NCBI GenBank assembly: GCA_049296775.1
Contig: JBAQTB010000001.1
Location: 224,992-288,991, forward strand
Reading direction: 5' to 3'
DNA: 64,000 nucleotides
DNA from: Patescibacteria group bacterium
GTDB lineage: Bacteria; Patescibacteriota; Patescibacteriia; UBA9934
Both the position numbers and the translations under genes were made by a program. Under the pieces are notes generated by a model. The model was not told where the DNA came from, ran no database searches, and was given only the letters and a program-made list of their open reading frames with translations. The stretch's first letter is position 1. Every line of letters starts with the position of its first letter. Positions 43,781 through 64,000 of the stretch are shown here, in pieces.

Positions 43781-43785
43781 AAAAA

Positions 43786-43812
43786 ACAGAAGCAAAATGC
43801 TTCTGTTTTTTT
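43786..43812. terminator. bidirectional terminator (ACAGAAGC-AAAAT-GCTTCTGT + T7)
   Basis: Perfect 8-bp stem flanked by A7 and T7, between tRNA-Arg and the convergent gene. Confidence 0.8.
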
Positions 43813-43822
43813 ATGTGTGGTC

Positions 43823-44530: not shown

Positions 44531-44589
44531 ATCATTTCACAGTATGCCCGAATAATTGTGAGGTTTCAATGATGACGGCATTAGGATAG

Positions 44590-44882
44590 CAGATCTGTTT
44601 ATACGTAACGAGTTTGAGCGAAACGGATGTTTCTATCGGGTGTCAGTGGTAGTCAGCTAAGACGGAATGACTCAAACAAAAAACCGTTTTATTTGTGACG
44701 AGTTTGGGTGACCGGGGAGAAAATCTTGAGGCGTAGGTTGAGCTTACGGTAAACAGAAAACCAGTTTATTCGTGACGAATTTGGATGAACGGGAAAGAAA
44801 TTTTCGAGGCGTAGGCAATCCTACGGAGAGAAAATTTTAGGGACCCGTGAGTCCGAAGTCGGCCGAATAAACTGGTTTTCCA
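44590..44882. repeat. three degenerate ~72-75-bp tandem repeats plus a 16-bp inverted repeat (GAAAACCAGTTTATTC 44756-44771 / GAATAAACTGGTTTTC 44865-44880) abutting the 3' end of tRNA-His
   Basis: Units begin GTTTATNCGTRACGARTTTG and end with the hairpin CGTAGG..CCTACG. The last unit's head is repeated inverted 2 nt from the tRNA. Confidence 0.6.
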
Positions 44883-44958
44883 TGGGGTGGCTAACGGGAA
44901 TTGAACCCGTACTAGAGGTACCACAAACCTCTGTGATAACCATTTCACCATAGCCACC
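44883..44958 (-). tRNA. tRNA-His (anticodon GTG) with genomically encoded G-1 and CCA
   Basis: Reverse complement reads G-GTGGCTA-TG-GTGAAATGGTTATCAC-A-GAGGTTTGTGGTACCTC-TAGT-ACGGGTTCAATTCCCGT-TAGCCAC-C-CCA. Confidence 0.9.
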
Positions 44959-45132
44959 ATGCGGCTAGGAATTAAGGGTCTTACCAACAAAGTGGCAGTA
45001 AGGGCTTAATTTCTGGGCGTGGGCCTGAATTGTCTTTAGAAGGTCCATTGCGAGGCGTAGTTTAGCAGCTTTTTAAGAAAAAGGCAACTTTTAAGGGTCT
45101 GGGCCGTATTTGGCTAATACAAAGGTAAAAGA

Positions 45133-45519
45133 CTTGACTGGATTTAGATTTTATGCTAATCTACTTCCCTCGCAGCGCTCTTTGCCGCGAGACGGAGGTT
45201 CCTTTGAAACTCGATCACGTTCCGAAGCCGCAAGGCTCTACAAAAGTAAAAACAAACCCATTGGACATCGAGTTCAACGCCGACACCGACGCCATCGACA
45301 ACTGCTGACACCCGCGACGGCCTGGAGAGTGAAGGTCTGGACGGAGGGCTCCTCTTCCGTCCAAGCCTTCAACGGCTGCCGTGAAACTGGTCCTCGGACT
45401 GGTGGAACGGCAGCATAAGTCTGGTGACCTGCCTTTGGTCCCAGCGAGTAAACATCAGCTTCGGCTGACGCGTGCTCAGGCACTTGCACCCAACAGTTCG
45501 CTGTTGGGTGTATTTTTTT
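45133..45519 (+). ncRNA. candidate ~350-nt structured non-coding RNA (promoter TTGACT-17-TGcTAATCT at 45133-45161; intrinsic terminator 45487-45519), identity unknown
   Basis: No credible ORF; the only one is a TTG-start Arg-rich artefact. GC-rich and contains several perfect hairpins with GNRA/UUCG tetraloops (GGACGGA..TCCGTCC, CAGC-TTCG-GCTG, CACCCAACAG-TTCG-CTGTTGGGTG+T8). Lies 41 nt upstream of polA. Confidence 0.4.
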
Positions 45520-48199: not shown

Positions 48200-49190
48200 C
48201 GTTAGGTTGTGTATGATCATCTTTATTTACGGCGATGATGCTTTGCGTGTCAAAGAACGCGTGGCCGAGATGCGTCAGAAATTTGTAGATAAATTTGATG
48301 TCTCGGGCATGAACGTGGATGAATTGGTGTCACGAGACGGCTTGCATGTTGAACGCGGAGCTATGATTGGCGCGGCTCAGGCTTCCCCGTTTCTGTCTGA
48401 GAAACGCATGGTTGTGATTAGAAATTTAGCCTCATCTTTGAAGAAAGCTGAGGCTAAGGCTTGGGTAGACGGTTTTTCTAGAACACCAGAATCTACAATT
48501 TTGGTGTTTGCAGATGCAGTACCGGCGGCAACGCTAGAGAAATCAGAGTTATTTAAAGCGCTGAAGGCTTTACCGGACGTGCATGCGTATCCTTTGCCAC
48601 AGTTAGAGGGCGCTGAATTGTCGGCCTGGGCTTTGAGCCGGGCTGGAGTGCACGGCGCGAGTGTGTCGCCATCTGTGTTGAGTGTATTGCTAAATCGAAC
48701 GGGTAATGACAGTTGGAAGATTGATGCTGAGTTGCAGAAGCTGTCTGCTTACGCGCACGGTGAGGCCATTACCGGCGCTATGATCACTGAACTGGTGCGA
48801 GTTGAGTCTCACGCTGATATCTTTGGTTTCATGGATGCCTTGGCTTCAGGCCAGCCAGCACGAGCTTTGCGACAATTAGCTGAGGAGCGTGAAGCCGGCG
48901 CCGATGAATTCCAGCTGTTCGGCATGCTGTTGCGACAGATTAGGTTATTGATTCAGGCTAGAGATGTGCTAGACGGTAATCCGAGGGCGCAGAAACAAGA
49001 CTTGGCGGATAACCTAGGCATTCATCCGTTTGTAGCTCAAAAACTCTTAACTGAAGTCCGGTCTTGGCCCGCTGAAAAGCTAGAAAAATTACACGGATTA
49101 GCGTTTGGATTAGATAAATCGATGAAATTGGGGCTGACCTCTGGAATTGCCGTAGATAGGCTGGTTTCTGGCTTCCTCAAGGTTTCTTGA
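48186..49190 (+). CDS. holA: DNA polymerase III delta subunit
   Basis: IIFIYGDDALRVKERV N-terminus and a clamp-loader delta fold. Start probably at MIIFIYG (~48213). Confidence 0.75.
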   Translation: MRLISVRLCMIIFIYGDDALRVKERVAEMRQKFVDKFDVSGMNVDELVSRDGLHVERGAMIGAAQASPFLSEKRMVVIRNLASSLKKAEAKAWVDGFSRTPESTILVFADAVPAATLEKSELFKALKALPDVHAYPLPQLEGAELSAWALSRAGVHGASVSPSVLSVLLNRTGNDSWKIDAELQKLSAYAHGEAITGAMITELVRVESHADIFGFMDALASGQPARALRQLAEEREAGADEFQLFGMLLRQIRLLIQARDVLDGNPRAQKQDLADNLGIHPFVAQKLLTEVRSWPAEKLEKLHGLAFGLDKSMKLGLTSGIAVDRLVSGFLKVS

Positions 49191-49229
49191 CGATTTTAAA
49201 GTTCTCCGCTATCCTTTGCCCACTTTCCT

Positions 49230-49499
49230 ATGCCAAATCTACAAAATGCAAAAAAGGCTTTGCGTCAAAGCATTGTCCGCGCTGGTCGTAATAAGCTCAT
49301 GCGTGAGCGTATTGACTATATGCGCCGCAGCTTCCGCAAGCTTTTAACTGCGAATAAGCTCGATGAAGCTAAGACGTTGATCAAGGATCTCGTCCAAGCT
49401 CTGGATAAAGCCGCAGGCAAAAATCTTATCAAAAAGAACACAGCCGCTCGCGTTAAGAGCCGCGCTATGGCTCAGTTGAATAAGATCACCAAAAAGTAA
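49230..49499 (+). CDS. rpsT: 30S ribosomal protein S20
   Basis: MPNLQNAKKALRQSIVRAGRNKLMRERIDYMRRSFRKLL is typical of S20. Confidence 0.9.
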   Translation: MPNLQNAKKALRQSIVRAGRNKLMRERIDYMRRSFRKLLTANKLDEAKTLIKDLVQALDKAAGKNLIKKNTAARVKSRAMAQLNKITKK

Positions 49500-49504
49500 G
49501 CCTA

Positions 49505-49542
49505 CAAAAAATACTCTGAGTAATATGCTCAGAGTATTTTAA
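49505..49542. terminator. bidirectional terminator (TACTCTGAG-TAATATG-CTCAGAGTA + T4)
   Basis: Perfect 9-bp stem between rpsT (+) and rmuC (-). Confidence 0.65.
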
Positions 49543-49551
49543 TTTACCGCT

Positions 49552-50658
49552 TTAATTCTCAATCACCGGTGAGTCGACGAGTTCTAGGTCTAGGACTTCT
49601 CCGCCTTTGCCAGCGGTGATTTTGTTGACGTCTTTGCTGATTTTACGTAATTCGCTGGATGATTGATTGAACTGGCTCACGGTGGTGTTGAGGTGTTTGC
49701 CGACCTTGCTGTGGTAATCGGCGTAAGCTCTGACGTGTTTGCCGAGTTCTTCCACCTGTTTTTGGATCATGACAGCATTTTCTTCGATCTTTAAAGCGCG
49801 GAGACCTTGTAAAACGGTTTGTAAAAAGGCAAAAAATGAAGTTGGTGATACAACAATAACTTTGTATTTTGAGGCGGCTCTGGCGATTAGGCTGTCGGTT
49901 TCATCAGATACTACGCCGATTTTATTGACGAGGAGATCGTAATACACGGCCTCATGTGGAATGAACATGAAAGCAAAGTCCATAGTGCCCTCTTCTGGCC
50001 GGATGTATTTTGAGGTTTCTTGAATTCTGAGTTTTAGGTCATTTAAAAAGGTCTTTTCTAGTTTTTCGCGGGCATCTGGATTCTGTTCAACGGCGAGTCG
50101 GTTGTAATTTTCCAGACTAAACTTGGAGTCGATCGGAATAACTTTGTTGTCTAACAAAATCGCAGCATCAACGATTTCACCATTATTGAATTTGTATTGC
50201 ATCTTGTAATGTTCAGGCGCGAGCACGTTCTTGAGCGCGGTTTCAAGGAAATATTCGCCTAAAATCCCACGTCCTTTAGGATTTTTCAGCACATCTTGGA
50301 GGCTTTGTAGCTGTGAAGAGAAATCCAGAACCTGTTTATTAGTAGCATCGAGGGTGGTTAGTCTTAAAGTAATATCCTCAATAATCTTGGAGGTTTGGGC
50401 AAACTGGGTTTGCATGGCCTTTTGGGAGTCGCTCATGCCTTTATAAACTTGATCGTTGACACGCCCTAACTGAGACTGCATCTCTACCCTACCTTTATCC
50501 TGGACCTCATAGAGCTCTTTGCGCATGGTGTTTAACTGCTCGAGTAATGCCAGGGTTGGATCTGCAGTTTTTTGGCTAACTAAACGGTAAAAAATGGCAC
50601 CTACGGCCACTAGAGTGAAGATTAGTAAACAGATAACGATCAAAAATTCGGTTTGCAT
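49552..50658 (-). CDS. rmuC: DNA recombination protein RmuC
   Basis: N-terminal TM, coiled coil, and a C-terminal RmuC nuclease-like domain (HYKMQYKFNNGEIVDAAILLDNKVIPIDSKF). Confidence 0.8.
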   Translation of the reverse strand: MQTEFLIVICLLIFTLVAVGAIFYRLVSQKTADPTLALLEQLNTMRKELYEVQDKGRVEMQSQLGRVNDQVYKGMSDSQKAMQTQFAQTSKIIEDITLRLTTLDATNKQVLDFSSQLQSLQDVLKNPKGRGILGEYFLETALKNVLAPEHYKMQYKFNNGEIVDAAILLDNKVIPIDSKFSLENYNRLAVEQNPDAREKLEKTFLNDLKLRIQETSKYIRPEEGTMDFAFMFIPHEAVYYDLLVNKIGVVSDETDSLIARAASKYKVIVVSPTSFFAFLQTVLQGLRALKIEENAVMIQKQVEELGKHVRAYADYHSKVGKHLNTTVSQFNQSSSELRKISKDVNKITAGKGGEVLDLELVDSPVIEN

Positions 50659-50754
50659 ATTTGACCTTTGGGGATTATGAAGACTATAATGTGTTCGCTT
50701 AGTGTTCGTAGTATAGCATATGCGGAGACGCTAGTTTTACGACTCTATGAGCCT

Positions 50755-50830
50755 GTCCCTATAGTTCAACTGGATAGAACATGGGCGTCCTAAGCCTGGG
50801 ATCTTGGTTCAAGTCCAAGTGGGGGCACCA
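50755..50830 (+). tRNA. tRNA-Arg (anticodon CCT), CCA encoded, two G-U pairs in acceptor stem
   Basis: GTCCCTATAGTTCAACTGGATAGAACATGGGCGTCCTAAGCCTGGGATCTTGGTTCAAGTCCAAGTGGGGGCACCA. Confidence 0.75.
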
Positions 50831-50869
50831 CAAGAAAATGGCTAAAGTTAGCCAAATAACAATGAAAAC

Positions 50870-51215
50870 GTTTCACGTGAAACATTCACTTTCAGAATGT
50901 TCCATATGAAACGTTTTTGTTTTTAGCGATATAATTCCGTACTCACATCGTCTATTCTCGTACCTCATGTTTCACGTGAAGCGTGTAGATCGAGATCCTG
51001 GGTGTCGACCAAGAACTGACGTTGCTAGTCGTGTAGATTGCGATGGCGTCGACAGGACGACCTCTGAATCCAAAGTATCAATTGAGACGCAGATGTTTTA
51101 CGTGAAACATTGCTAATTAAAGTATCGAAATAATAAATTTGAGTGTCCGGGTCGACCGATTGAGAAGTTATCAACTGTTGTGGACTAAAGGGGGATAAGA
51201 TTTGGCCACGTGAAG
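50870..51215. promoter_or_regulatory. three copies of a 12-14-bp palindrome (G)TTTCACGTGAAA(C) plus a fourth half-like site, upstream of the surface-protein operon; TATAAT at 50930-50935
   Basis: GTTTCACGTGAAAC 50870-50883 is a perfect 14-mer. GTTTCACGTGAAG at 50969-50981, GTTTTACGTGAAAC at 51095-51108 and CCACGTGAAG at 51206-51215. Confidence 0.5.
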
Positions 51216-51329
51216 AACTACGAATAATTGTCAACGCTAGTGTAGACAAAGTTACTAACAATCTATACCCAAGTTATCCACAAAGTTATCCCCTTTTTGC
51301 GCTTGTGGGATATTTGCTGACGACATATT

Positions 51330-52265
51330 GTGTTCAGAGGGAATATGTTGAAGTTTTTTAAAGGCCTGGTTGTTTACTTTTCGCTTGGATTAGCGATTTT
51401 TTTGCCTTCCCTCGTAAATGCGGCCATGAGCTCAACGAATTATCGCATCCAGTTTGATTCTGTGGGTGTTGGGGGACTCGATAATCCGTCCTCGGCCTCC
51501 TACGGGCTCAGAGACACTTTGGAGTTTATTCAGGGGATCGGAACTTCAGCATCTTATAGGGTAGATGAGGGTTATAGAGGCGGGATTTACGACCCAATTG
51601 TGCATTTTACGGTGATTGCACAAGATACGGCGTCGCAAGTAGCAGCGACCGCAATTACGAGCACCTCGGTTTCAGTGACGTTGGCTACCGGTTACGTGAC
51701 CGGTGATTATATAGCCGTCATTCAAAATGAGGGGCTTAGTCAAATAGCGGCGATTGGTAGGATTACGAGTGTTGCGGGCGCTACCCTGAATATCGATTTC
51801 TTTACTGACGGCGGCACCTTTCCGGTGATCGATAGTGTCAATGATTATGTGTATGAGCTGACGGACACGGGTATCCCACTTAGTTCTTTAACACCGAGTA
51901 CGGCCCAGACCGGTATTTTGGCTTGGGATGTTGATGCTAGTGTGCCGGAAGGCTACAGCGTATATGTGTTTGAAGATCATGATCTGTGGGTTAGCTCTGG
52001 TACGGCGATTAATGATGTCGAGGACGGCGCTGTGACCACGAGTAATGAGGAGTATGGCGGCAGATCATCGGATACGACCTTGTCAGGCTCAACATTTGAT
52101 ACTGCGGATACGTCTTTCACGACTAGCTTACAGCAAGTAGCCAGTCGGAATGTTTCAACTTTGAAATCACGGGATTTTTTGACGCTGAAAGTGGCCGCCG
52201 CGGAGACCACGGTGGACGGCGCTTACTCGCATACGCTGACAGTAGTGTTCGTGGGTGATTATTAG
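51330..52265 (+). CDS. secreted protein with N-terminal S-x-N-Y-R-[IL]..V-G-V-G-G...S-S-A-S-Y-G-L motif domain, Thr/Ser-rich
   Basis: Signal peptide LKFFKGLVVYFSLGLAIFLPSLVNA. First gene of a same-strand cluster with 0-10-nt gaps and overlaps. Confidence 0.55.
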   Translation: MFRGNMLKFFKGLVVYFSLGLAIFLPSLVNAAMSSTNYRIQFDSVGVGGLDNPSSASYGLRDTLEFIQGIGTSASYRVDEGYRGGIYDPIVHFTVIAQDTASQVAATAITSTSVSVTLATGYVTGDYIAVIQNEGLSQIAAIGRITSVAGATLNIDFFTDGGTFPVIDSVNDYVYELTDTGIPLSSLTPSTAQTGILAWDVDASVPEGYSVYVFEDHDLWVSSGTAINDVEDGAVTTSNEEYGGRSSDTTLSGSTFDTADTSFTTSLQQVASRNVSTLKSRDFLTLKVAAAETTVDGAYSHTLTVVFVGDY

Positions 52266-53133
52266 TATGCGTAAGTTTTGGATGTTTACAGGGTGTTTGC
52301 TAATTTTTGGTCTGAGCTGCCACCGCTCGGCCTTAGCGCTTGTAGCCACGCCGTCAGCAGCGACACTTCAGGTTGAAATTGGGGAGCAGGCCATTCAGAG
52401 CTTGAATTACGAGAACGATGCGGGGGTTACGGAAGAGTTTCAATTGAGTTTAATGGAGGTGGAGTTTGGTGAATCAGCGGACGATCTCCGTTTTTTGCCA
52501 TTATCCGAGTCTAAACGAGCGGCAGTTAGCCTCAGCGCGGAGACTTTACATTTAGAGCCAGGTACCAGTCAGGCTGTCGAAGTGCGTATCAACGCTGGGC
52601 AGATATCAGAAAATTACGCATTAGCAGTGTTGGCGATGGGAGTCGCCCAAGGTGGGGCTGGAGTGAATGTAGCGAGTGCGCAGGCGAATTTGGTGTTTGT
52701 GAATGTGGGTGCTGTGGCGCCAGTAACTTTAAATATCGATTCATTTTCGACCATTCCAGAACAGGACCACGCTTCTCCAATCAAATTTGCAGTTTTACTG
52801 AGTAATCAAGGGGATGGCGTAGCGCAACCAAAAGTTGGCGTGCAGATCAAGAATATGTGGGGCAAGGAAGTTGAAGTGGTGCCGCTTAACCCTACCGGGC
52901 GTCGTATTCCGGGTCAGACAAGCCGGATTTTTTCTGCAGATTGGCAGGCGAGTAAATTTCAAACTGGCGTGTACCGGGCGACTGTTTACGTTTATCCGGA
53001 CGATTCCGAGCAAGTGCTCACGCAAGAATTGCGCGTGGTACTATTTAGCTGGCGATTGCTTTGCATTTTAGCTGGCGCGGGCGTGCTTTTGATAGCGTCA
53101 GGACTAATTTTAAGGCGAGCAATGAGTCGATAA
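52255..53133 (+). CDS. exported beta-rich protein with C-terminal TM anchor and basic tail
   Basis: Signal peptide, then a C-terminal [27 protein letters not shown]. The start overlaps the upstream stop by 11 nt. Confidence 0.55.
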
Positions 53134-53134
53134 T

Positions 53135-55591
53135 GTGAGTTTAAGGCAGCGAGTTTATTTTAGATTAGTTGGGATATTTTTGACGATCATTGTTTCAATG
53201 TCGCCATTTTTTGGTGGGTTACAAGTGGCGAAAGCAAGTACGGTAAATGATTTAACGGATCAACCTTCGAGTTTATTGATCTCGACGGATTCGAATCACA
53301 AATTCACCTTCACGTTAACTTCTGATATTGCTGAAGGTGAAACGTTTACATTCGATTTTCCAGCGGCTTTTGATACTGCCGCAATCACAGAAAATGATGT
53401 TGACGTGACTTCGGATGGCATTGATCTAGTCACAGATAGTACCTGTAGTTTGGGGACCGAAATGAGTATCGCGATGGCGGCGGACAGTTTGACTTTGACG
53501 AGTTGCGCGGGCTCGGGAGGGCTGAGTATTGGACGTGTTTTGCAGGTAGAAGTGGGGACTAACGCTTCGGCATCAGGTTCTGGAACGGAAAAAATTACTA
53601 ATCCAAGTACAGAAGGTACGTATTCTATTGGGATTGCAGGGACATCTGGCAATTTAGGTGCGATTCCGTTACCAATTGGGACGCGGAGCGGAGCGGGAGT
53701 ATCGGTCAATTTCAGCGGCGGATCTTCTGGAGGAGGGCCGACAGGTGGTGGCGGAGGGGGTGGAGGTGGCGGTGGGCTTCCCGATCCTGATCCAGACCCT
53801 GATCCTGAACCTGAACCGGAGCCCGAGCCTGAACCAGAGCCTGAACCGGAACCAACTCCTGACCCTGAACCGGAACCTGAGCCAACACCGGATCCTGATC
53901 CTGAGCCAGAACCTGACCCGGAGCCCGAGCCTCCAATTGAGCCTGAGCCTGATGAACCGGTGGAAGATGAGGATGAACCAACTGACACTCAAGTGAATGA
54001 TCCGGCGGTAAGAATACGGATTTTTGGAGCACCAGGCTTGCAATTAAGCGTGGGAGAGGCGAGTGTGGACGTGATTGCGGGCACAAGGGTGCGCGTCAAT
54101 ATCGAAGTCGATTCTGCGCCGGATATCCGTGCAGTACTTTTGATCATTGGTGACGATCAGTACGTTTTGTCAGATGACGGTACGGGTAAATTTACTGGTA
54201 GCCTGACGATTCCAGCATCGGATGAAGTCATCAGCGGCTTAGTTTTGTTAGCTGACGGCGCGCAGTTATCGACTAATTTGGCGCTTCACATAGTCTCTGC
54301 GGGCTCAGTTTATGTTGTGATTGACGGACAGCGGCAAAATTTGAGTGACAGTGTGATTACGGCGTATACGCAGGCTCAAGGACGTGAAGCGGCTTGGGGG
54401 GCGTCTGGTTACGGTCAAGCCAACCCGGTTCTTTCAGCCTCGGGGAGTTTTTACTGGTACGTGCCGAACGGTGGTTATGTGGTTTATGCCAGTCACGACG
54501 GGTATGGAGAAGGGAGACAAACGGTGCAGGTGAGAAACAATATTTTGGCACCGAGCATGCAATTGTTTGTGCCGGTTGTTGAGGTTCAAGATTCGATTTT
54601 GCCGTTGCCGGCGGCTGAGGCCATAGCCGCAATTCAGGACATTTTAGCGACCCCAGAGGCGCAAACGGTGGCTAAAGTGGCTTTACCGACCACGATCGCA
54701 CTGACCGTTGGTTTGATTACGCTCTTGGCGTTTGGGTTCAATTTATTGCCGTATCTTCAATACTTTTTAACGTCACCATTCCTATTTTTCGGTCGTAAAC
54801 GCCGGAACGCATACGGGGTAGTTTATAACTCGATTAGTAAGATTCCGATTGAATTAGCAACAGTACGTTTGTACAACTGGGCGGATAATCGACTAGTCAA
54901 AAGTGTGGTCACAAGTCCGGATGGTAGGTATTCGATGATCGTTAATCCGGGTGAGTATCGTCTGCTGGTGGTGAAACCTGGTTTTGAGTGTCCGAGTCAA
55001 TACGTGGGAGAAGTGAAGACTGATGGGAAATATCTTGATGTCTACACCGGTCAGATGTTGAAAGTGACGGAGACAGAGGCTTTAGTGGCCGCAAATATTC
55101 CGATTGATCCGTCTCAAGCGGATGCTCATCATGCCCCACGATTATTGGCATTGAAACGTTTCGCTAGAACGCTACAGCAGATTTTGGCTCCAATTGGCGT
55201 GTTATTGTCGGTAATTGTTTACATAATTTCTCCGTCGACCTTTGCTTTGGTGATGGCGATCGCGCAATTTGTGGTTTGGTTACTTGTGATCAGATTGGTG
55301 AAGCCGACCAAGCCGCAAGGTTGGGGGATTGTGTATGACGAAAAGAGTCAACAGCCTGTGGGCAATACTGTCATTCGGGTGTTTGAACCGAAGTATAATA
55401 AGTTAGTCGAGACTGCTCTCACTGACAGTCGCGGTAGGTACTCGTTCATACTCGGGCCGAACGAATATTTTGTGACTTACAACAAGCCCGGATACACGGA
55501 AAAGATTGTGCGCCCAATCGATTACACTAATAAGCCGGAGCCAACGCCCGTGGCGATGAACGTTGCGTTGCAACATGTATCGGGGGAGTAG
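53135..55591 (+). CDS. large membrane protein with poly-Gly/(Asp-Pro, Glu-Pro)n spacer and two C-terminal carboxypeptidase-regulatory-like beta-sandwich domains
   Basis: N-terminal TM; tract G4-G15 followed by [36 protein letters not shown]...; central TM helices; motifs [27 protein letters not shown] and [27 protein letters not shown]. Confidence 0.6.
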
Positions 55592-55592
55592 C

Positions 55593-58500
55593 ATGTTCCA
55601 GATCGGAAAATACAGCTTTAAACGAACACTCGCCAGAGTGCTACTGGTGGGTATTTGTGTTTTGCAAGGGTTGAGTGCGGTGACTCCGGTGAGTCCTGTC
55701 TTGGCTGCTTCGGCTCCAAATATTTTGAATTATCAAGGACGCGTTTTAAATGCGAATGGTATTCCAGTGACGGATACTTCCTTGACCATGATCTTTGAGT
55801 TTTACACCTCGTTGGCTGGTGGCACGTGTGTGTGGTCAAACAGTTCAGCGACTTGTGCATCAGCAACAGGCAAGGCTGTGACTTTGACGGATGGATTGTT
55901 TACCCAGAGTCTGGGTGACACAACGGACTCATTTGCGGCAATCGGTGATGATATTTTTGGAGATAACGCGGCTTTGTTTTTGCAGGTCACTATTGCTGGT
56001 GAAGTTTTAACGCCAAGAAAGCAGATGGTAGCCGCACCGTACGCTTTGAATTCTGAAACTTTGGATGGCTTGAATGCGGATACAGATGGAGCCACGAGTA
56101 GCGCGATCGTAGCTTTGAGTTCAGCAGGAAATGTTATTTTTACCGGTGATTCAACGGGCGCTACGGTTGATGCGGGTGTGGCGTATATCAATCCAGCTGC
56201 GGCTGGAGCTAATGAAACCTTGTTAGGAATTGGTGATAACGGAACGGAGAGATTTAGGATCGATAAAGAGGGGGACGTGTTTATTAAGTCGATTGAATTA
56301 GACGGTGTAGGTACGAACAACGTCACTTCTGGTGCTTCTCTGATAGGTACATTTAACGAATTTAGTTTGTCGGCGGGCACTACTGTTCAGGATGTTTTGG
56401 ACGATCTCGACCAGGCCATTGATGATATTGTAACGGGTGGAGCGGTTTCCAAATGGACTGATGATGGCACGTTTACGTATTTAACTTCCGTCACGGATGA
56501 CTTTGTGTTAGGTGACAGCACGATTGCTGGAGCTTCACTGTATTTCGATGTTGGTACTGGTCAGCTGGACCTTGGTACCGACGAAGCGCTAGGCGGTATT
56601 TTGCGCTTGTATAGCGTAACAGCTGCGACAGCTGATCCTACTTTAGCTGCGGATGCCAGTGGAAATTTGGATATTACGACTGCGACCGTAGAGATTTCTG
56701 GTGATTTAGAAGTGTCTGGTGGTGACATTACAACTGCGGCTGCGACCTTGAACTTGGCTGCGACGAACGCTACCACGGTCAACGCCTTCGCTGCGGCTAC
56801 GACGCTGAACATTAATGACGCCGCGGTTACCTCTACCATCGACATTGGTGGCGTGACATCGAGCGGTACGAACACCGTTAACATTGCGACTAACGCGACA
56901 GCTGCTGACGGTATTACCATCGGTAACAGTCACGCTTCGACAACTCTTGCTCTGACTGGAGGTGATGACTGGTCAATTGCAGCCACCGGCGTCATGACAT
57001 TGTCAGCTTCTGCTGCGGCAACTACCGCCATCGTCATCACTGACACCGATTACACCAACTCCTTGTCGATCGGCGACAACAACATTACCGGTACTACTTA
57101 CTCATTAATTGGTACGACATCAACGATTGACTTTACGAATTTTGACGTCGCCTCGACTGGAGCTATCACTGTCGCAGCTGGCACAGGGCTAGACACGAAC
57201 GGTGCTGGTGCTCTCGCCCTTGGTAACACGAATGCTACTTCAGTCTCAGTTTGTAACTCAGCCGCTTGTGACACGATTTCTATTGGTACCAACGCTGATG
57301 CTGACGCCATTACGATTGGTGACTCGAGCGACACTGTAATCATCAACGGTACGGCACTCTCTCTAGTTATCGGCGCTACCACCGTTGCTGGAGCTGAGAT
57401 CACTATCTTAGACGGTGGCATCGCTCTGTCAGAATTAACCGACTCCGGCACATTGACCGCTACTACTGTCGACATCAACGGAGGTGCCATTGATGGCACG
57501 GCCATTGGAGCTTCTTCGCCCTCAACCGGAGCCTTCACGACTCTGTCTAGCACTGGCGTCACGGCTCTCGGTAACAACTCGGCCACGGTCGCGATCAACT
57601 CCTCTGACTGGGACATCTCAGCTACGGGTGCTATGACAGGGATTGGGGCTATTACAGCTGATGGCTTGATCACTGGCTCAGCCGGCCTGACAGTTTCTGG
57701 CGGTAACATCACGACTTCAGCTGCTCAGATCCTAGGAGCTTCTCCATTTGTATTCGAAGGTGCGACTGATGATGATGTCACTACGACATTCGCCATTACT
57801 GATCCAACCGGAGCTAGAACGATCACTTTCCAGAACGCTTCAGGCACTGTCGCTTTCTTGACTGATACTGTTTCTCCGACACTGACAGATAACGTGGCTG
57901 ATGCGCTAGATATCCAAGAGGGCACTAACAACTACATCAACATTAATACTACGGATGCTTCAGAGAGCATCGCTTTTGGTAATGCCACGACTAACCCTAG
58001 TTTCTCTTTCTTGGGTAGTGGTACGGTGACCACTGCCGGAGACATCGCCCTGAACGGAGGAGATCTCACGAGTTCATCGGCGACCTTCAACCTGTTAGCT
58101 ACGGCCTCAACGACAGTCAACGCCTTCGCCGCTGCCACGACGCTTAACATTAATGACGCCGCGGTTACTTCTACCATCGACATTGGCGGTGTTACTTCTA
58201 GCGGCACTAACACCGTTAACATTGCGACTAATGCTACGGCCGCTGACGTGATTACCATCGGTAACAGTCACGTCTCGACGACTGTAGCTCTAACAGGTGG
58301 TGACGACTGGTCAATCGCTGCGACCGGTGTCATGACCCTGTCAGCTTCTGCTTCTGCGACAACTGCCATCGTCATTACTGACACCGACTACACCAACTCC
58401 TTGTCGATTGGCGATAACAACATTACCGGTACTACTTACTCACTGATTGGTACGACTTCTACCATCGACTTTACTAACTTTGACGTCGCCTCTACTGGAG

Positions 58501-61500
58501 CAATTACTGTCGCCGCCGGTACAGGCCTCGACACGAACGGTGCTGGTGCTCTAGCCCTCGGTAACACGAATGCTACTTCAGTCTCAGTGTGTAACTCAGC
58601 CGCTTGTGACACGATTTCTATCGGTACAAACACCGATGCTGACGCTATAAACATCGGTGACACTAATGACACCGTGACCATTAGCGGTACTTCACTGTCT
58701 CTAGTTATCGGCGCTACGACTGTCTCCGACGGTGAGATTACTATTCTTGATGGCGGCATCGCTCTCTCTGAACTGACTGACTCGGGCACTCTTACTGCTA
58801 CCACCGTCGACATCAACGGTGGCGCTATTGATGGTACTGCCATTGGTGCTAACTCTCCTTCATCTGGTGCCTTCACCACACTATCGAGTACTGGCGTCAC
58901 GGCTCTTGGTAATAACTCGGCTACAGTTGCGATTAACTCAAGTGACTGGGACATCTCAGCCACTGGAGCCATGACAGGGATTGGAGCTATTACTGCTGAT
59001 GGCTTGATCACTGGCTCAGCCGGCCTGACAGTTTCTGGCGGTAACATCACGACTTCAGCTGCTCAGATCCTGGGCGCTTCTCCATTTGTTTTTGAGGGCG
59101 CTACTGATGATGATGTAACTACTACTTTTGCGATTACTGATCCAACCGGAGCTAGAACGATCACTTTCCAGAACGCATCTGGCACTGTCGCTTTCTTAAC
59201 TGACACTCTGTCGTCGACATTAACAGATAACATCACTGACTCATTAGACATCCAAGAGGGTACTAACAATTACATCAACATTAATACTACGGATGCTTCC
59301 GAGAGCATCGCTTTTGGTAATGCCACCACTAACCCAAGTTTCTCGTTCCTTGGAAGCGGCACAGTTACTACTGCTGGAGACATCGCCCTGAACGGTGGCG
59401 ACTTAACGAGTTCATCCGCGACCTTCAACCTGTTAGCTACCGCTTCTACCACAGTTAACGCCTTCGCTGCGGCGACGACGCTTAACATTAACGATGCGGC
59501 GGTCACCTCTACCATCGACATTGGTGGCGTTGACTCGAGTGGCACTAACACGGTTAACATTGCGACTAACAGCACAGCAGCCGATGTAATTACGATCGGC
59601 AACACCAACGCCTCAACAACTCTCGCTCTGACTGGAGGTGATGACTGGTCAATTGCAGCAACGGGAGTCATGACTCTCTCTGCTAGCGCTGCCGCAACTA
59701 CAGCCATCGTCATTACTGACACCGACTACACCAACTCCTTGTCGATTGGCGATAACAACATTACCGGTACTACTTACTCACTGATCGGTACGACCTCGAC
59801 TATTAACTTCACTAACTTTGATGTCGCTTCAACTGGAGCTATTACTGTAGCGGCTGGTACAGGTTTAGACACTAATGGAGCCGGAGCCCTCGCACTCGGA
59901 AACACTAATGCTACCTCGGTCTCTGTCTGTAACTCAGCCGCTTGCGATACGATTAGTATTGGTACGAATGCTGATGCGGATGCCATTACGATCGGTGACT
60001 CGAGTGACACGGTGATCATTAACGGTACGGCACTCTCTCTCGTCATCGGAGCTACAACGGTCGCTGGAGCTGAGATCACTATCCTAGACGGTGGCATTGC
60101 TCTGTCCGAATTAACCGATTCTGGCACTCTGACTGCTACCACCGTCGACATCAATGGAGGTGCCATTGACGGCACGGCCATTGGCGCTGCTTCACCATCG
60201 ACGGGAGCTTTTACAACTTTATCGAGCACCGGTAACGTTACTTTGTCTAGTGCTCAGATCCTAGGAGCTTCTCCATTGGTATTCGAAGGAGTGACTGATG
60301 ACAACGTCACTACCACTTTTGCCATTACCGATCCAACCGGAGCTAGGACTATAACTTTTCAGAATGCGTCAGGTACAGTAGCTTTTCTAACGGATACCAT
60401 TTCTCCTACGCTGACGGATAACACTTCCGATGCTCTGGATATTCAGGAGGGAACGAATAATTACATCAACATTAATACCACCAATACCTCTGAGAATATT
60501 GCTTTTGGTAATGCCACCACCAACCCCAGCTTTTCTTTCCTGGGTAGTGGTACGGTGACCACTGCCGGAGACATCGCCCTGAACGGTGGCGACTTAACGA
60601 GCTCATCCGCAACTTTCAACCTGTTAGCTACGGCATCGACTACTGTCAACGCCTTCGCGGCTGCCACCACGCTTAACATTAATGACGCTGCAGTTACCTC
60701 GACCATCGACATCGGTGGTGTGACATCAAGTGGTACTAACACCATTAACATTGCGACTAACGCTACGGCCGCTGATGCTATCACGATTGGTAACACTCAC
60801 GTGGATACAGCTTTGGAGCTTAGAGGTGGTGATGACTGGTCGATTGCATCGAGTGGAGTTATGACTCTGTCAGCTAGTGCATCCGCGACTACAGCTATAG
60901 TCGTTACTGACACTGACTACACTAATGCTCTATCAATTGGAGACAATAACATCACGGGTACTACTTACTCATTAGTAGGTACAACAGCAACCATCAATTT
61001 TACCAACTTTGATCTATCCGGCACTGGAGACATTACGGTTGCTGCTAACGGTGGTCTGGATACGAATGGTGCTGGCTCATTGCTGTTAGGCGGAACTAAT
61101 GCCACCACTGTCTCAGTGTGTAACTCTGCCGCTTGCGATAATTTTAATCTTGCCACTAACGCTGATGCAGATATAATTTCAATTGGTGATTCAATGGATA
61201 GTCTAGCCTTATCATCAGCTAACTGGTCGATCACGACTGCTGGTTTGATTACGACTGCCGACGACCTCGCCTTGAACGGAGGGGATCTAACTAGCTCATC
61301 TGCCACCTTCAACTTGCTAGCTACTGCCTCGACCACCGTCAACGCCTTCGCCGCAGCCACGACACTCAACCTCAATGATGCAGCAGTGACGTCCACTATT
61401 CATATTGGTGGTGTGACTTCTAGCGGGACTAATACCGTGAATATCGCTACCAACGGTACAGCTGAAGATGAGATTAACATTGGTAATACTAATGCGGCTA

Positions 61501-64000
61501 CATCTTTGGAGCTGATTGGCGGTGATGATTGGTCGATTGCGAATACCGGAGTTATGACCCTGTCTACCAGCTCTACCCCCGCAACGGCGATTGTAGCTAC
61601 GGATACGGGTTACACTAATGCGCTCTCAATTGGAGATAACAATATTACCGGTACCACCTACTCATTGGTTGGTACTACGTCAACAATCGATTTTACTAAC
61701 TTTGACGTAGCCTCGACCGGAGCTATCACTGTCGCTGCGGGTACTGGACTAGACACTAACGGCGCAGGAGCTTTAGCTATCGGTAACACGAACGCTACTT
61801 CAGTCTCAGTCTGTAACTCAGCGGCTTGTGACACAATTACGATTGGTACTAACGCTGACGCCGATGCGATTACGATTGGTGACTCAAGTGATTCAGTATC
61901 AGCAGTTTCGGCTAACTGGTCGATTACGACGGCTGGTTTAATCACGACAGCCGACGATCTCGCCTTGAATGGAGGGGATCTCACTAGCTCATCCGCGACC
62001 TTTAACCTGCTTGCTACCGCCTCGACTACCGTTAACACCTTTGCCGCAGCCACTACGCTTAACATTAATGACGCTGCGGTTACTTCCACAATCGACATTG
62101 GAGGTGTTACCTCAAGCGGTACTAACACCGTCAACATTGCCACTAACTCGACTGCCGCTGATGTCATCACGATTGGTAACACGAATGCTTCGACCACTCT
62201 AGCTCTGACAGGTGGTGATGATTGGTCAATTGCAGCAACCGGTGTCATGACCCTGTCTGCTTCTGCTTCCGCGACAACCGCCATCGTTATCACGGACACC
62301 GATTACACCAACTCCTTGTCGATCGGCGACAATAACATCACCGGTACCACTTATTCACTGATTGGTACGACGTCAACGATTAATTTTACCAACTTTGACG
62401 TAGCCTCGACTGGAGCTATCACTGTCGCTGCGGGTACTGGACTAGACACAAATGGAGCTGGAGCATTGGCACTCGGTAACACTAACGCTACTTCAGTCTC
62501 AGTGTGTAACTCAGCTGCTTGTGACACGATTTCTATCGGTACCAATACAGACGCTGACGCTATAAGTATTGGTGATGCTAATGACACTTTGGCGATCGAT
62601 ACCTCGACGTGGTCAGTAACTACCGCTGGAGCTGCGTCATTTAGCACCCTTGCTACCAATAGCGATGTTAATTTCAACTTCACTACTGCCAGTAGTGGCA
62701 CGGAAAACTTCGTGATCGCCAGTACGCATGCGACTGACGCCACTTTGGTAGTCCAGCAAATTGGCATGACCAATACGGCCGCAGCCGACACCGGCACCAA
62801 TTACTTGCTCGCCCTAACTAATGAAAATGATGGCGGTGCTACCGGTACGCCTGATGCCTTATTGTTCATCTCCCAAGACGATACTAACGAAGCCGTGGCT
62901 AGCGGTATTCTTTTCGATGCTGCTGGCGGTGGCTTAACCACCGCGATCATGGCTACCGATGCACAAATTGATACCGCCCTCAGCGTGGGAGCTAATGACA
63001 TCGTGGGTACCACAGGTTTAATTAACTACACCAACTTCGATGTTGCCTCAACTGGGGCTATTACTGTCGCTGCAGGTACGGGGCTAGACACTAATGGCGC
63101 AGGCGCCCTCGCCCTTGGTAATACCAACGCTACTTCAGTCTCAGTCTGTAACTCTGCCGCCTGCGACACGTTTACGATTGGTACAAATACAGATGCCGAC
63201 GCTATCACCATCGGCGATACTAACGATACCCTCACCATCGGCGCCCTTACCTCAATCACCAACAACTCCGCGACCACATCCGAGGCAGTTACCATTACTA
63301 CTAATGGGCTTACATCGGGTAGATCGTTAATTGTGGCGAGTACAGGCGAAGCAGCGACAACGGGCACGGGAGCTCTTATTTATGTTAGTGGCACTAGAAC
63401 GTCTACCGGTACTATTTCCGGCCATGTTCTAGATGTTACGAGGCAAATGAATAATAGTTCAGGTGGTTTACTTTCTGTCACCGGAGATCTTCTGAGTATT
63501 TTAAGTAATAATTCCAATACTTCAGGCACTTTGACAGATTCTGCGACTTTGCTGAATGTCGAGCAAAGTAATACCGGCGCGACTGGCAGCGTTTTGAACA
63601 TTGGCAACAACGGCACTGGTTCCGCAATATTTGTTACTCAAGATAATGCTACTGGCACGACGGTTGACACGACTGCTGGTGGGGCTATTCATGTTGATAA
63701 TACCGGTAACGATAACTACGGACTCACGGTTTATAGCGATAATTCAGCAGCTTCGTCGCCTTTAGCTTACTTTTTCGCTGATCACACTACCTTTGCTAGT
63801 GATGTTGTTGCCATTCGGAATGATTCTTCCGCTTCTGCTTTGGTAATTACTCAAAATACTGTGGCGAATGCGACGGTGGGAGCGAATTCCCAAGCATTGG
63901 TGATTAATGTAAATGAAGCCGCAAACAGTGAGGAGGTGATTGTTATTATTTCAGATGCAGATGGGACGCCTGATTTAGAGTTTAGGTTCGAGAATGATGG
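55593..64000 (+). CDS. giant repetitive cell-surface fibre/adhesin-like protein (>2,800 aa within window; 3' end beyond window)
   Basis: ATG 2 nt after the upstream stop. Signal or TM segment FKRTLARVLLVGICVLQGLSAV. N-terminal domain with NILNYQGRVLNANGIPV...PRKQMVAAPYALNSETLDG. The frame is then uninterrupted to the window end, encoding Thr/Ala/Gly/Asn/Ser-rich repeats. Not in the ORF track because no stop codon occurs in-window. Confidence 0.8.
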   Translation, partial: MFQIGKYSFKRTLARVLLVGICVLQGLSAVTPVSPVLAASAPNILNYQGRVLNANGIPVTDTSLTMIFEFYTSLAGGTCVWSNSSATCASATGKAVTLTDGLFTQSLGDTTDSFAAIGDDIFGDNAALFLQVTIAGEVLTPRKQMVAAPYALNSETLDGLNADTDGATSSAIVALSSAGNVIFTGDSTGATVDAGVAYINPAAAGANETLLGIGDNGTERFRIDKEGDVFIKSIELDGVGTNNVTSGASLIGTFNEFSLSAGTTVQDVLDDLDQAIDDIVTGGAVSKWTDDGTFTYLTSVTDDFVLGDSTIAGASLYFDVGTGQLDLGTDEALGGILRLYSVTAATADPTLAADASGNLDITTATVEISGDLEVSGGDITTAAATLNLAATNATTVNAFAAATTLNINDAAVTSTIDIGGVTSSGTNTVNIATNATAADGITIGNSHASTTLALTGGDDWSIAATGVMTLSASAAATTAIVITDTDYTNSLSIGDNNITGTTYSLIGTTSTIDFTNFDVASTGAITVAAGTGLDTNGAGALALGNTNATSVSVCNSAACDTISIGTNADADAITIGDSSDTVIINGTALSLVIGATTVAGAEITILDGGIALSELTDSGTLTATTVDINGGAIDGTAIGASSPSTGAFTTLSSTGVTALGNNSATVAINSSDWDISATGAMTGIGAITADGLITGSAGLTVSGGNITTSAAQILGASPFVFEGATDDDVTTTFAITDPTGARTITFQNASGTVAFLTDTVSPTLTDNVADALDIQEGTNNYININTTDASESIAFGNATTNPSFSFLGSGTVTTAGDIALNGGDLTSSSATFNLLATASTTVNAFAAATTLNINDAAVTSTIDIGGVTSSGTNTVNIATNATAADVITIGNSHVSTTVALTGGDDWSIAATGVMTLSASASATTAIVITDTDYTNSLSIGDNNITGTTYSLIGTTSTIDFTNFDVASTGAITVAAGTGLDTNGAGALALGNTNATSVSVCNSAACDTISIGTNTDADAINIGDTNDTVTISGTSLSLVIGATTVSDGEITILDGGIALSELTDSGTLTATTVDINGGAIDGTAIGANSPSSGAFTTLSSTGVTALGNNSATVAINSSDWDISATGAMTGIGAITADGLITGSAGLTVSGGNITTSAAQILGASPFVFEGATDDDVTTTFAITDPTGARTITFQNASGTVAFLTDTLSSTLTDNITDSLDIQEGTNNYININTTDASESIAFGNATTNPSFSFLGSGTVTTAGDIALNGGDLTSSSATFNLLATASTTVNAFAAATTLNINDAAVTSTIDIGGVDSSGTNTVNIATNSTAADVITIGNTNASTTLALTGGDDWSIAATGVMTLSASAAATTAIVITDTDYTNSLSIGDNNITGTTYSLIGTTSTINFTNFDVASTGAITVAAGTGLDTNGAGALALGNTNATSVSVCNSAACDTISIGTNADADAITIGDSSDTVIINGTALSLVIGATTVAGAEITILDGGIALSELTDSGTLTATTVDINGGAIDGTAIGAASPSTGAFTTLSSTGNVTLSSAQILGASPLVFEGVTDDNVTTTFAITDPTGARTITFQNASGTVAFLTDTISPTLTDNTSDALDIQEGTNNYININTTNTSENIAFGNATTNPSFSFLGSGTVTTAGDIALNGGDLTSSSATFNLLATASTTVNAFAAATTLNINDAAVTSTIDIGGVTSSGTNTINIATNATAADAITIGNTHVDTALELRGGDDWSIASSGVMTLSASASATTAIVVTDTDYTNALSIGDNNITGTTYSLVGTTATINFTNFDLSGTGDITVAANGGLDTNGAGSLLLGGTNATTVSVCNSAACDNFNLATNADADIISIGDSMDSLALSSANWSITTAGLITTADDLALNGGDLTSSSATFNLLATASTTVNAFAAATTLNLNDAAVTSTIHIGGVTSSGTNTVNIATNGTAEDEINIGNTNAATSLELIGGDDWSIANTGVMTLSTSSTPATAIVATDTGYTNALSIGDNNITGTTYSLVGTTSTIDFTNFDVASTGAITVAAGTGLDTNGAGALAIGNTNATSVSVCNSAACDTITIGTNADADAITIGDSSDSVSAVSANWSITTAGLITTADDLALNGGDLTSSSATFNLLATASTTVNTFAAATTLNINDAAVTSTIDIGGVTSSGTNTVNIATNSTAADVITIGNTNASTTLALTGGDDWSIAATGVMTLSASASATTAIVITDTDYTNSLSIGDNNITGTTYSLIGTTSTINFTNFDVASTGAITVAAGTGLDTNGAGALALGNTNATSVSVCNSAACDTISIGTNTDADAISIGDANDTLAIDTSTWSVTTAGAASFSTLATNSDVNFNFTTASSGTENFVIASTHATDATLVVQQIGMTNTAAADTGTNYLLALTNENDGGATGTPDALLFISQDDTNEAVASGILFDAAGGGLTTAIMATDAQIDTALSVGANDIVGTTGLINYTNFDVASTGAITVAAGTGLDTNGAGALALGNTNATSVSVCNSAACDTFTIGTNTDADAITIGDTNDTLTIGALTSITNNSATTSEAVTITTNGLTSGRSLIVASTGEAATTGTGALIYVSGTRTSTGTISGHVLDVTRQMNNSSGGLLSVTGDLLSILSNNSNTSGTLTDSATLLNVEQSNTGATGSVLNIGNNGTGSAIFVTQDNATGTTVDTTAGGAIHVDNTGNDNYGLTVYSDNSAASSPLAYFFADHTTFASDVVAIRNDSSASALVITQNTVANATVGANSQALVINVNEAANSEEVIVIISDADGTPDLEFRFEND
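56746..63200 (+). repeat. tandem coding repeats inside the giant gene: three ~1,339-bp units (56746, 58086, 59425), then units of ~1,190, ~691, ~695 and ~650 bp; each carries the V-C-N-S-A-A-C-D motif
   Basis: Copies are about 85-90% identical at the nucleotide level, with differences concentrated at synonymous third positions. Confidence 0.8.

Follow-up and report, generated by a model that had tools for sequence, protein, structure and literature searches.

Several described surface systems bear on the locus analysed here. The Pam pilus of Candidatus Mycosynbacter amalyticus, which belongs to the candidate phyla radiation (CPR), has two FimC/PapD-like chaperones, PamC and PamD, each with a C-terminal transmembrane (TM) helix, and no usher (Troman et al., 2026, bioRxiv 10.64898/2026.03.03.709456). 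In the same preprint, PamT is proposed to be a non-polymerising tip, and a tail-fibre-like gene was found to co-localise consistently with pam operons. Firmicutes WxL/Csc complexes contain WxLIP, a protein of DUF916-DUF3324-TM architecture (Hassan et al. 2023, PMC10599100; PDB 9i1y, 9i25). All 21 mosaic adhesive trimers (MATs) of Bdellovibrio have, next to the signal peptide, an N-domain that 'would presumably tightly bind a surface element', which is still unidentified (Caulton et al. 2024, PMC10769870). The fibrils TLP-1a and TLP-1b, recovered from pond water and of unknown source organism, are held together by N-terminal strand exchange (CryoSeek, PMC11494351; PDB 9ikj, 9ikk). Here we describe a four-gene operon, g1 to g4, in a 64,000-nt stretch from the genome of an uncultured, ultra-small member of the Patescibacteria (GenBank GCA_049296775.1, contig JBAQTB010000001.1, forward-strand positions 224,992 to 288,991; hereafter the window). 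We predict that it encodes a reduced, usher-less, chaperone-assisted surface appendage of the Pam-pilus superfamily that mounts a giant adhesive fibre, a reading that we favour with modest confidence. The prediction builds on observed gene order, export signals, folds, family ties, domain shuffling between g3 and pilins, and a conserved candidate operator.

The operon has much in common with the Pam pilus. Both are found only in CPR bacteria, and both combine Sec-exported subunits that carry a truncated immunoglobulin-like (Ig-like) C-domain (predicted in the case of g1) with a proposed membrane-anchored terminal subunit and a co-localised tail-fibre-like gene. In both, a PapD-like chaperone has a C-terminal TM helix, a likeness of g2 that concerns fold and architecture only, and no usher is present. 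The g1 protein also matches the PamT and Pam_pilin_C models, at scores far below their equivalog cutoffs. In contrast to the Pam pilus, the operon lacks PamA/B/E-type shaft pilins (N-domain, linker strand, C-domain) and has a single chaperone. Its anchor is the 818-aa polytopic g3 rather than the RbmA-like PamR (2 x FnIII), to which g3 would be a functional analogue only; g1 has an extra inserted domain, and the fibre gene is giant and lies inside the operon. The host lineage, Uhrbacteria of the Parcubacteria group, is not named in the preprint, and no ATP synthase neighbourhood is found here. Chaperone-usher pili (Pap/Fim, CFA/I, Csu) share with the operon the chaperone fold of g2, the pilin-like fold of the g1 C-domain and a two-domain tip logic, in which g1 would resemble FimH and PapG in having extra domain(s) ahead of a C-terminal pilin domain. 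Unlike those systems, the operon belongs to bacteria with no outer membrane, its subunits are larger and sequence homology is not detectable; their chaperone is soluble and periplasmic, whereas g2 is membrane-tethered, as it is in 57/57 positional orthologues. No outer-membrane usher family matched g1 to g4 in Pfam or NCBIfam, and no other gene lies between g1 and g4. An earlier reading of this DNA, made from the sequence only, had concluded that the operon matched no named system and was not of chaperone-usher type. Neither conclusion is supported, in view of the distant kinship of g1 with Pam pilins (NCBIfam), the Bdellovibrio MAT N-domain matched by 48/48 g4 orthologues and the pilus-chaperone fold of g2. 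The same reading had set aside sortase/LPXTG systems; here, no LPXTG motif precedes the TM helix of g2, and no sortase family matched among g1 to g4 and ten other large window ORFs (open reading frames) that were scanned.

The four plus-strand ORFs were confirmed (Table 1), and inspection of the sequences revealed a hydrophobic, signal-peptide-like segment at the N-terminus of all four products, in line with the prediction that all are exported. The gaps or overlaps of 0-10 nt reported in the sequence-only reading were right as to tight packing, but the starts assumed for g1 and g2 had to be corrected. Starts were chosen by inspection of the junctions and with the help of genes called independently on a short-read contig from this organism. 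The most likely start of g1 is the ATG at 51345, with the ribosome-binding site AGAGGGA ahead of it, rather than the GTG at 51330; that of g2 is the ATG at 52267 rather than position 52255. The GTG start of g3 at 53135 was upheld as the sole start that yields a signal peptide, and g4 begins with the ATG at 55593, with GGGGGAG ahead. With these starts every junction consists of a stop, 1 nt and a start, which suggests translational coupling of g1 to g4. As a check on the assembly, the independent short-read contig (L001) was compared with the window: it agrees with positions 39230-56978 with 0 mismatches, confirms the first 1.4 kb of g4 and stops exactly at the onset of the g4 repeats. The g1 protein is 100% identical to WAZ14_01405 of a Patescibacteria metagenome-assembled genome (MAG), where it lies on a 455-kb contig; for g2 and g3, taken with their longer ORF starts, exact database look-ups returned no record.

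Conservation of the arrangement was assessed by scanning species-representative genomes with the g1 alignment, which yielded 60 loci, all of them from Patescibacteria and mostly from Candidatus Uhrbacteria. The order g1-g2-g3-g4 is retained in essentially all sufficiently long loci. Since it is kept across the loci of ~60 Uhrbacteria species, the arrangement is not due to chance, and the earlier proposal that anchor, spacer and fibre form one surface module gains from this conservation, from the exported-looking products and from the putative tail-fibre/MAT-type docking domain of g4. In relatives that were inspected closely, the cassette adjoins polA-holA-rpsT-rmuC. Identity across loci is 38-73% for g1 and ~20-47% for g2, which evolves fast; g3 orthologues of 647-1,316 aa occupy the same position in ~50 loci, and complete g4 orthologues measure 984-2,190 aa, all of them shorter than the g4 of the window (>2,802 aa). 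Many records of cassette-bearing MAGs (L009, L011, L014, L024, L027 and others) have the title 'uncultured Gammaproteobacteria bacterium', and that of one reads 'Methylococcaceae'; such taxonomic labels are likely to be placeholders or mistaken.

A fifth gene on the same strand follows g4 in 17/20 loci that have a complete g4 and enough 3′ sequence (for example L003 17477-19816, and also L012, L018, L021, L055, L059, L060 and others); its place here would be beyond the 3′ edge of the window. The product, ~780 aa long, has 12-13 TM helices, a TPR domain at its C-terminus and a G-S-G-A-G-T-Y-G motif, which we take to be like that of O-antigen-ligase/PglL-type proteins, with no support from hidden Markov models (HMMs). 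The fifth protein might glycosylate the Thr/Ser-rich g4 fibre.

The assignment of g1 to the Pam superfamily depends on family comparisons. Pfam gave no match for g1, and a single-sequence search against PDB sequences found nothing. The protein did match the NCBIfam model of PamT (NF058579; 29.5 bits, E 4.5e-7), below its curated cutoff of 240 bits, and that of Pam_pilin_C (15.8 bits; cutoff 55). Among 21 sampled members of the g1 family, PamT was matched by all (best 1.1e-13) and Pam_pilin_C by 10, in every case below the curated cutoff, which indicates homology and not orthology. An exhaustive profile search with g1 retrieved 1,230 cluster representatives, many of them ~215-240 aa long and similar to g1 in two parts alone, its N-terminal segment and its C-terminal domain. 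Because these short intermediate relatives score higher against the two Pam models (maxima of 64 and 46 bits), we take g1 to be a distant Pam-superfamily subunit with an inserted domain of ~80 aa. No other segment of the g1 family is as well conserved as the N-terminal extension, which holds the S-x-N-Y/S-S-A-S-Y motif singled out in the sequence-only reading and is common also to the ~230-aa PamT-like family. In an AlphaFold2 (AF2) monomer model of g1 (pLDDT 83.9), the N-terminal ~55 residues are unfolded (~40) and the remainder scores >90. Foldseek returned weak matches that are enriched in chaperone-usher pilins, and the closest solved fold to the C-domain is TLP-1b (PDB 9ikk). Sequence kinship of g1 or its short relatives with TLP-1 was rejected, as none was detected and the likeness is at the fold level only. 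The TLP-1 protomer also differs from g1 in being a 237-aa homopolymer-forming protein, and g1 has the additional inserted domain. TLP-1 was modelled on UniProt A0A2M8AA21, an accession that presumably falls in a range holding metagenome-derived CPR entries. TLP-1-type fibrils may be products of this CPR pilin superfamily.

More distant relatives were collected in a metagenome scan seeded with a tight alignment of the short PamT-like family, which gave 79 loci whose genes were typed with our own HMMs. Around the ~230-aa relatives of g1, the commonest full order is pilin-like gene, g2-like gene, g3 C-terminal module and MAT-N fibre. Of the 51 loci that reach 6 kb or more, 48 have an adjacent g2, 29 contain the g3 C-module and 24 contain the g4 N-domain, the last two counts being lower because contigs end. 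Some loci add one or two hybrid shaft-type pilins, described below. In others the fibre is replaced by giant proteins with a C-terminal pilin C-domain, which adjoin pilin-like and g2-like genes (L093 1341-9260, L126 5282-10408, L097 1-3507 and L085 3-2264; 2,640, 1,709, 1,169 and 754 aa, respectively). These look like adhesin-pilin fusions in the manner of FimH and PapG. Because giant adhesin-like proteins end in it, we regard the pilin C-domain as a general attachment module across this superfamily.

A link to pilins was also seen in g3. The protein opens with a signal peptide, domain I and the strand GVSVNF, continues with a poly-Gly run and a (D/E-P)n spacer, then Ig-like domains and a hydrophobic block, and closes with a first CarboxypepD_reg domain, a TM hairpin and a second CarboxypepD_reg domain. 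Domain I is very conserved and has no match in Pfam or among PDB sequences. In related metagenomic loci, ~360-aa proteins consist of a signal peptide, the full N-terminal domain of g3 (g3N; HMM positions 2-163 of 164) and a pilin C-domain (L074 10683-11771, L077 10712-11791 and L084 10659-11729; also L090 and L108). One hybrid representative, P0322, combines g3N with a Pam_pilin_C match at 1.6e-10. The strand at the junction reads DQVTVSATVDP in hybrid pilins and VGVSATVP in g3 orthologues, and in the window g3 its counterpart GVSVNF stands just before the spacer. The hybrids are probably the counterparts of the PamA/B/E shaft pilins. Because g3N occurs fused to a pilin C-domain in the hybrids and the junction strand is retained, we interpret g3 as a pilin N-domain and linker strand in which the acceptor domain has been replaced by a stalk and membrane anchor. 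By analogy with PamR or PapH, its logic would be that of a chain terminator and anchor. A profile comparison of g3N with the g4 N-terminal domain (g4N) was not significant.

The poly-Gly run, the (D/E-P)n spacer and the two CarboxypepD_reg domains had all been pointed out in the sequence-only reading and are present, the last as two stretches matching Pfam PF13620 (E 1.1e-20). A Pro-rich spacer occurs in about two thirds of g3 orthologues and is lacking mostly in the longest (>1,100 aa). The C-terminal module is the best-conserved part of the protein across 52 orthologues, in which conserved basic clusters (RRKRK, K..KR.LR, RRLAKPRKPK) flank the TM blocks. Because of these clusters and the positive-inside rule, a topology with the N-terminus outside, three TM segments and both CarboxypepD_reg domains in the cytoplasm is favoured; a topology with four TM segments is the alternative. 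The earlier placement of the CarboxypepD_reg domains among the exported parts of g3 is therefore doubtful.

The g2 protein is the candidate chaperone. Its C-terminal TM helix and basic tail, noticed before, belong to a plan that is common to 57/57 positional orthologues: a signal peptide, a mature protein that opens with the pattern x-V-x-P-x-x-x-D/E-L...G-E...V-x-N, a C-terminal TM helix that usually follows P-W, and a basic tail. Window g2 alone had no Pfam match, and a single-sequence search against PDB sequences returned nothing. The AF2 model (pLDDT 92.4) consists of two beta-sandwich domains and a TM helix. Foldseek placed it near pilus chaperones (CfaA 4.6e-11; CsuC; EcpB, target-based template-modelling score [TMt] 0.64; Caf1M) and near E. 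faecium WxLIP (1.3e-10), in both its free and its long-WxL-bound forms; RbmA and other PapD-like/ASH domains followed further down with poorer superposition. At the level of sequence, the only significant relative of g2 among solved structures is EfmWxLIP1, matched by the family profile with E 1.6e-8 over the first domain only. Pfam WxLIP_PGBD was matched by 18/61 g2 family members, all sub-threshold, and fn3_5 by 31/61; DUF3324 matched none of the 61. In the WxLIP of WxL/Csc complexes, too, a signal peptide is followed by two Ig-like domains and then by a TM helix at the C-terminus, and there as well a small exported partner is paired with a large one. In contrast, the partners here would be a Pam-type pilin and a MAT-like fibre, with no LPXTG protein. 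No WxL domain was matched in g1, g3 or g4 (Pfam, NCBIfam), whereas the WxL/Csc criterion calls for at least two WxL proteins. The sequence kinship of g2 with WxLIP of Firmicutes is a hint that bacteria lacking an outer membrane have long made use of chaperone-like proteins tethered to the membrane.

The fourth gene had been described as giant, stop-free and repetitive, and it is all three. From its start the frame runs for 2,802 codons to position 64000 with no stop, and the product is rich in T (18%), A (14%), G (10.5%) and S (10%). Every orthologue carries the N-domain signature A-S/P-P-N-I-x-x-Y-Q-G-R-L-L-N-x-N-G-V-P. The NCBIfam model Bdello_MAT_N (NF053851) was matched by 48/48 orthologues (best 2.2e-11), all below the cutoff of 60 bits, and by window g4 with 32.4 bits (E 7.1e-8), likewise below it; window g4 also has a weak match to Pfam ORF_12_N. 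A Peptidase_G2-type intramolecular-chaperone (IMC) domain was found in 5/8 complete orthologues scanned (best E 3e-11), three of the five matches being above the Pfam gathering score, and complete orthologues end in an acidic P/E/V/T-rich tail. The repeat region holds seven A modules, each with one C-x4-C pair, at start-to-start spacings of 1338, 1338, 1191, 693, 693 and 642 nt. Since the DNA copies are 65-89% identical and the longest exact repeat is 83 nt, the modules have truly diverged; their copy number is that of the source assembly alone. Tandem Repeats Finder (TRF) reported no tandem repeats in g4, where the periods of 693 and 1338 nt exceed its limit, and the repeats were resolved by a repeat search with motif anchors. 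Alignment of the last 240 residues in the window to the L008 orthologue suggests that ~650-700 residues are lacking here, for a total of roughly 3,400-3,500 aa. Antisense ORFs of 108-213 aa at 56561-63367 (minus strand), which repeat with the g4 modules, were rejected as shadow ORFs of a repeat-rich, stop-poor strand. Bdellovibrio MATs and g4 appear to have in common a beta-rich N-domain straight after the signal peptide, a long variable fibre and, in some orthologues, an IMC-type domain. They differ in that g4 belongs to a monoderm-like CPR host, is 2-3x longer with 446-/231-aa super-repeats and gives sub-threshold matches; moreover, the operon of g4 also encodes a candidate docking apparatus, and for MATs the anchor is unidentified.

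The palindrome TTTCACGTGAAA occurs three times ahead of g1, and these are its only matches in the 64-kb window. Its extended consensus is about ATGTTTCACGTGAAACAT. With up to one mismatch allowed, 62 Uhrbacteria loci contain 75 sites within 1.5 kb upstream of g1 vs 4 in the other 851 kb, an enrichment of ~190-fold, and the preferred position is 190-270 nt ahead of the g1 start codon. The palindrome is also present in 17/79 distant metagenomic loci, upstream of the pilin gene in the examples compared, and three distant loci have a second site downstream of that gene. Based upon this distribution, the palindrome is a strong candidate for the operator of a regulator. An imperfect hairpin of ~60 nt (50861-50923), which includes the first copy, lies just after tRNA-Arg(CCT) and could be the tRNA terminator or part of a regulatory leader. 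In the leader, Rfam identified nothing but the tRNA; matches to miRNA precursors were dismissed as spurious reflections of the hairpin, and a promoter/terminator scan performed no better than on shuffled sequence.

Based on these observations, we propose the following route of assembly. All four proteins would be exported by Sec, consistent with their signal-peptide-like N-termini. The membrane-held, PapD/WxLIP-type g2 would then bind the incomplete C-terminal Ig-like domain of g1, as its fold and family suggest. Because a spacer, Ig-like domains and a polytopic anchor replace the pilin acceptor domain, g3 is predicted to act as the terminal, membrane-anchored subunit; going by domain homology, it would donate the linker strand GVSVNF to the C-domain of g1, while its spacer, Ig-like domains and anchor hold g1 off the membrane. 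More speculatively, g4, probably a trimeric MAT/tail-fibre-like fibre, would dock by its N-domain on the g1 tip, possibly through the N-terminal extension and the tailspike-anchor-like inserted domain of g1, and serve as a host or surface adhesin. Expression would be controlled by the conserved palindromic operator upstream. Indirect signs of donor-strand exchange are the conserved g1 N-terminus, unfolded in the monomer model, and the linker strand retained in g3. A bolder version of this proposal is a widespread, hitherto overlooked CPR 'fibre socket', in which g2 loads g1, g1 is locked by donor strand on g3 with the beta-sandwiches of g3 in the cytoplasm, and the motif and inserted domain of g1 hold a trimeric g4; in all its parts together we consider this doubtful.

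Several findings weigh against the proposed appendage. The matches to Pam and MAT models are all far below the curated cutoffs (29.5/240, 15.8/55 and 32/60 bits), and two-domain shaft pilins, the defining subunits of the Pam pilus as published, are missing from the operon. Foldseek gave no match for g1 at E <= 1e-3, a profile comparison of g1 with the g4 N-terminus was not significant (probability 3%), and the idea that domain I of g3 is homologous to g1 was dismissed (hhalign E 0.14). No NCBIfam model of the Pam chaperones was found, hence none links g2 to PamC/PamD. Moreover, g2 resembles RbmA, the fold assigned to the Pam anchor PamR; because it is RbmA-like and the homologous WxLIP stays partner-bound in the WxL system, g2 could be an anchor or holder and not a transient chaperone. 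The g1 N-terminal extension, finally, could drive homopolymerisation instead. It is on this last point that the most serious competing explanation is built, namely that g1 is a true major pilin that homopolymerises via an N-terminal donor strand, with g2 as chaperone, g3 as terminator and anchor, and g4 as an independent adhesin or a decoration of the filament tip or side. The N-terminal segment is indeed of alternating hydrophobic character (N-Y-x-I-x-W-D-x-V), most conserved and unfolded in the monomer model, and TLP-1b, the best structural neighbour of the g1 C-domain, is an N-terminal-strand-exchange homopolymer (PMC11494351). Nevertheless, the closest named relative, PamT, is proposed by the preprint to be a non-polymerising tip, and no sequence link to TLP-1 exists. 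Related loci with shaft-type two-domain pilins use another subunit, g3N plus C-domain; the Uhrbacteria cassette is without that subunit, and g3 itself supplies a long spacer. We therefore consider polymerisation of g1 to be unlikely, though credible.

A different division of labour follows if g2 does not act in assembly. In a static complex of the WxL/Csc type, g2 would stay membrane-bound and hold g1 and/or g4 by beta-strand insertion, and g3 would be a separate wall-spanning scaffold. This idea draws on EfmWxLIP1 being the sole significant solved-structure sequence relative of g2, on the WxLIP_PGBD matches within its family, on Foldseek matches to WxLIP alone and WxL-bound, and on WxL clusters, in which one WxLIP likewise has two exported partners, one small and one large. 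It is difficult to reconcile with the lack of any WxL domain match in g1, g3 and g4, the unmatched DUF3324 and the missing LPXTG partner, and g1 is kin to Pam pilins while g3 bears a pilin N-domain and linker strand; we judge it improbable. The MAT_N domain of g4, the Peptidase_G2 IMC domain of its orthologues, its weak ORF_12_N match and the likeness of the g1 middle domain to tailspike N-terminal domains could also be read as traces of a phage tail-fibre module, domesticated or degenerate, or of an S-layer-like set of envelope proteins, with g4 as a structural envelope or phage-derived fibre that has nothing to do with pili. Yet the relatives inspected have the cassette at a fixed chromosomal position by polA-holA-rpsT-rmuC, phage genes are absent nearby, Sec signal peptides stand on all four products, g2 and g3 carry membrane anchors, and conservation is vertical across ~60 species. 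A phage origin of the cassette was rejected on the housekeeping genes around it, and we hold this last explanation to be very improbable. The appendage of the Pam-pilus superfamily thus remains the reading that we prefer.

The Pam-type system as such is already known from the 2026 preprint and the NCBIfam models. What appears to be unreported is the Uhrbacteria variant without shaft pilins, the g3-type anchor derived from a pilin N-domain and linker, the giant MAT-like fibre within the operon, the sequence link between a chaperone-like protein and Firmicutes WxLIP, and the conserved palindrome. Nothing relevant came up when the literature was searched for surface structures of Uhrbacteria. To our knowledge, the means by which CPR/Patescibacteria attach to their hosts are largely unknown, and we know of no cultured Uhrbacteria. 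With this in mind, the cassette is a concrete and conserved candidate for the apparatus by which an entire candidate phylum (~60 species here) attaches, with relatives in many metagenomic contigs. It would extend the Pam pilus family, in reduced form, to the Parcubacteria group and would suggest that the tail-fibre-like genes beside pam operons have PamT-like subunits as their adaptors. We put forward g3 as a pilus terminator and anchor of a new type, and the operon offers a testable answer to the question of what Bdellovibrio MAT fibres dock onto; the conserved palindrome is a handle on regulation. If the fibre socket were real, the long-sought surface element that anchors MAT and tail-fibre-like adhesins would be identified, WxL complexes, chaperone-usher pili and Pam pili would form one ancient strand-complementation family, and an extracellular adhesin would be coupled, mechanically or by signalling, to the cytoplasm of an episymbiont.

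Table 1. Positions of the operon features in the window, with putative assignments
Feature	Position	Strand	Remarks
Palindrome TTTCACGTGAAA, three copies	50871-50882, 50970-50981, 51096-51107		in the 500-nt leader before g1; candidate operator sites
g1, PamT-like pilin/adaptor subunit (putative)	51345..52265	+	306 aa; alternative GTG start 51330
g1 N-terminal extension, mature residues ~1-58	51423..51599	+	triple S-S-x-N/S-Y-x-L/I motif; from alignments
g1 inserted middle beta-domain	51600..51854	+	lacking in short PamT-like relatives; fold similar to the N-terminal, particle-anchoring domains of phage tailspikes
g1 C-terminal pilin-type Ig-like domain (Pam pilin C-domain superfamily)	51855..52262	+	conserved terminal G-x-Y
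g2, membrane-anchored two-Ig-domain chaperone-like protein	52267..53133	+	288 aa
g2 layout			signal peptide; domain 1 aa 25-125; domain 2 aa 138-259; TM aa 262-287 (53050-53127); basic tail
g3, putative stalk/anchor membrane protein	53135..55591	+	818 aa; GTG start
g3 distal domain I (aa 35-187) and beta-strand GVSVNF (aa 188-193, 53696-53713)	53237..53713	+	two-domain pilin homology
g3 poly-Gly run and (D/E-P)n spacer	53714..54004	+	read from sequence
g3 C-terminal membrane module	54662..55534	+	hydrophobic block aa 510-553; CarboxypepD_reg 1 aa ~558-645; TM hairpin aa 682-722; CarboxypepD_reg 2 aa ~730-800
g4, giant MAT-like/tail-fibre-like protein	55593..64000	+	>2,802 aa; runs past the window end
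g4 N-terminal docking domain (putative)	55710..56072	+	conserved; two Cys; directly after the signal peptide
g4 repeat region	56655..63218	+	three 446-aa super-repeats (module A + B), then A alone at 231-aa spacing

Elsewhere in the window, three ORFs of 715, 416 and 278 aa (1923-4073 and 37535-38788 on the minus strand, 4304-5140 on the plus strand) had no Pfam match at 1e-5. A Gly/Pro-rich stretch of the 278-aa ORF (4898-5044) cross-matches the g3 spacer in tblastn, a similarity of low complexity only. The dnaA gene is located at 27326-28810 on the minus strand, at the cumulative GC-skew minimum (~26-28 kb), and because the two coincide the replication origin probably lies inside the window. 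The operon is ~23 kb from this putative origin and is co-oriented with replication.

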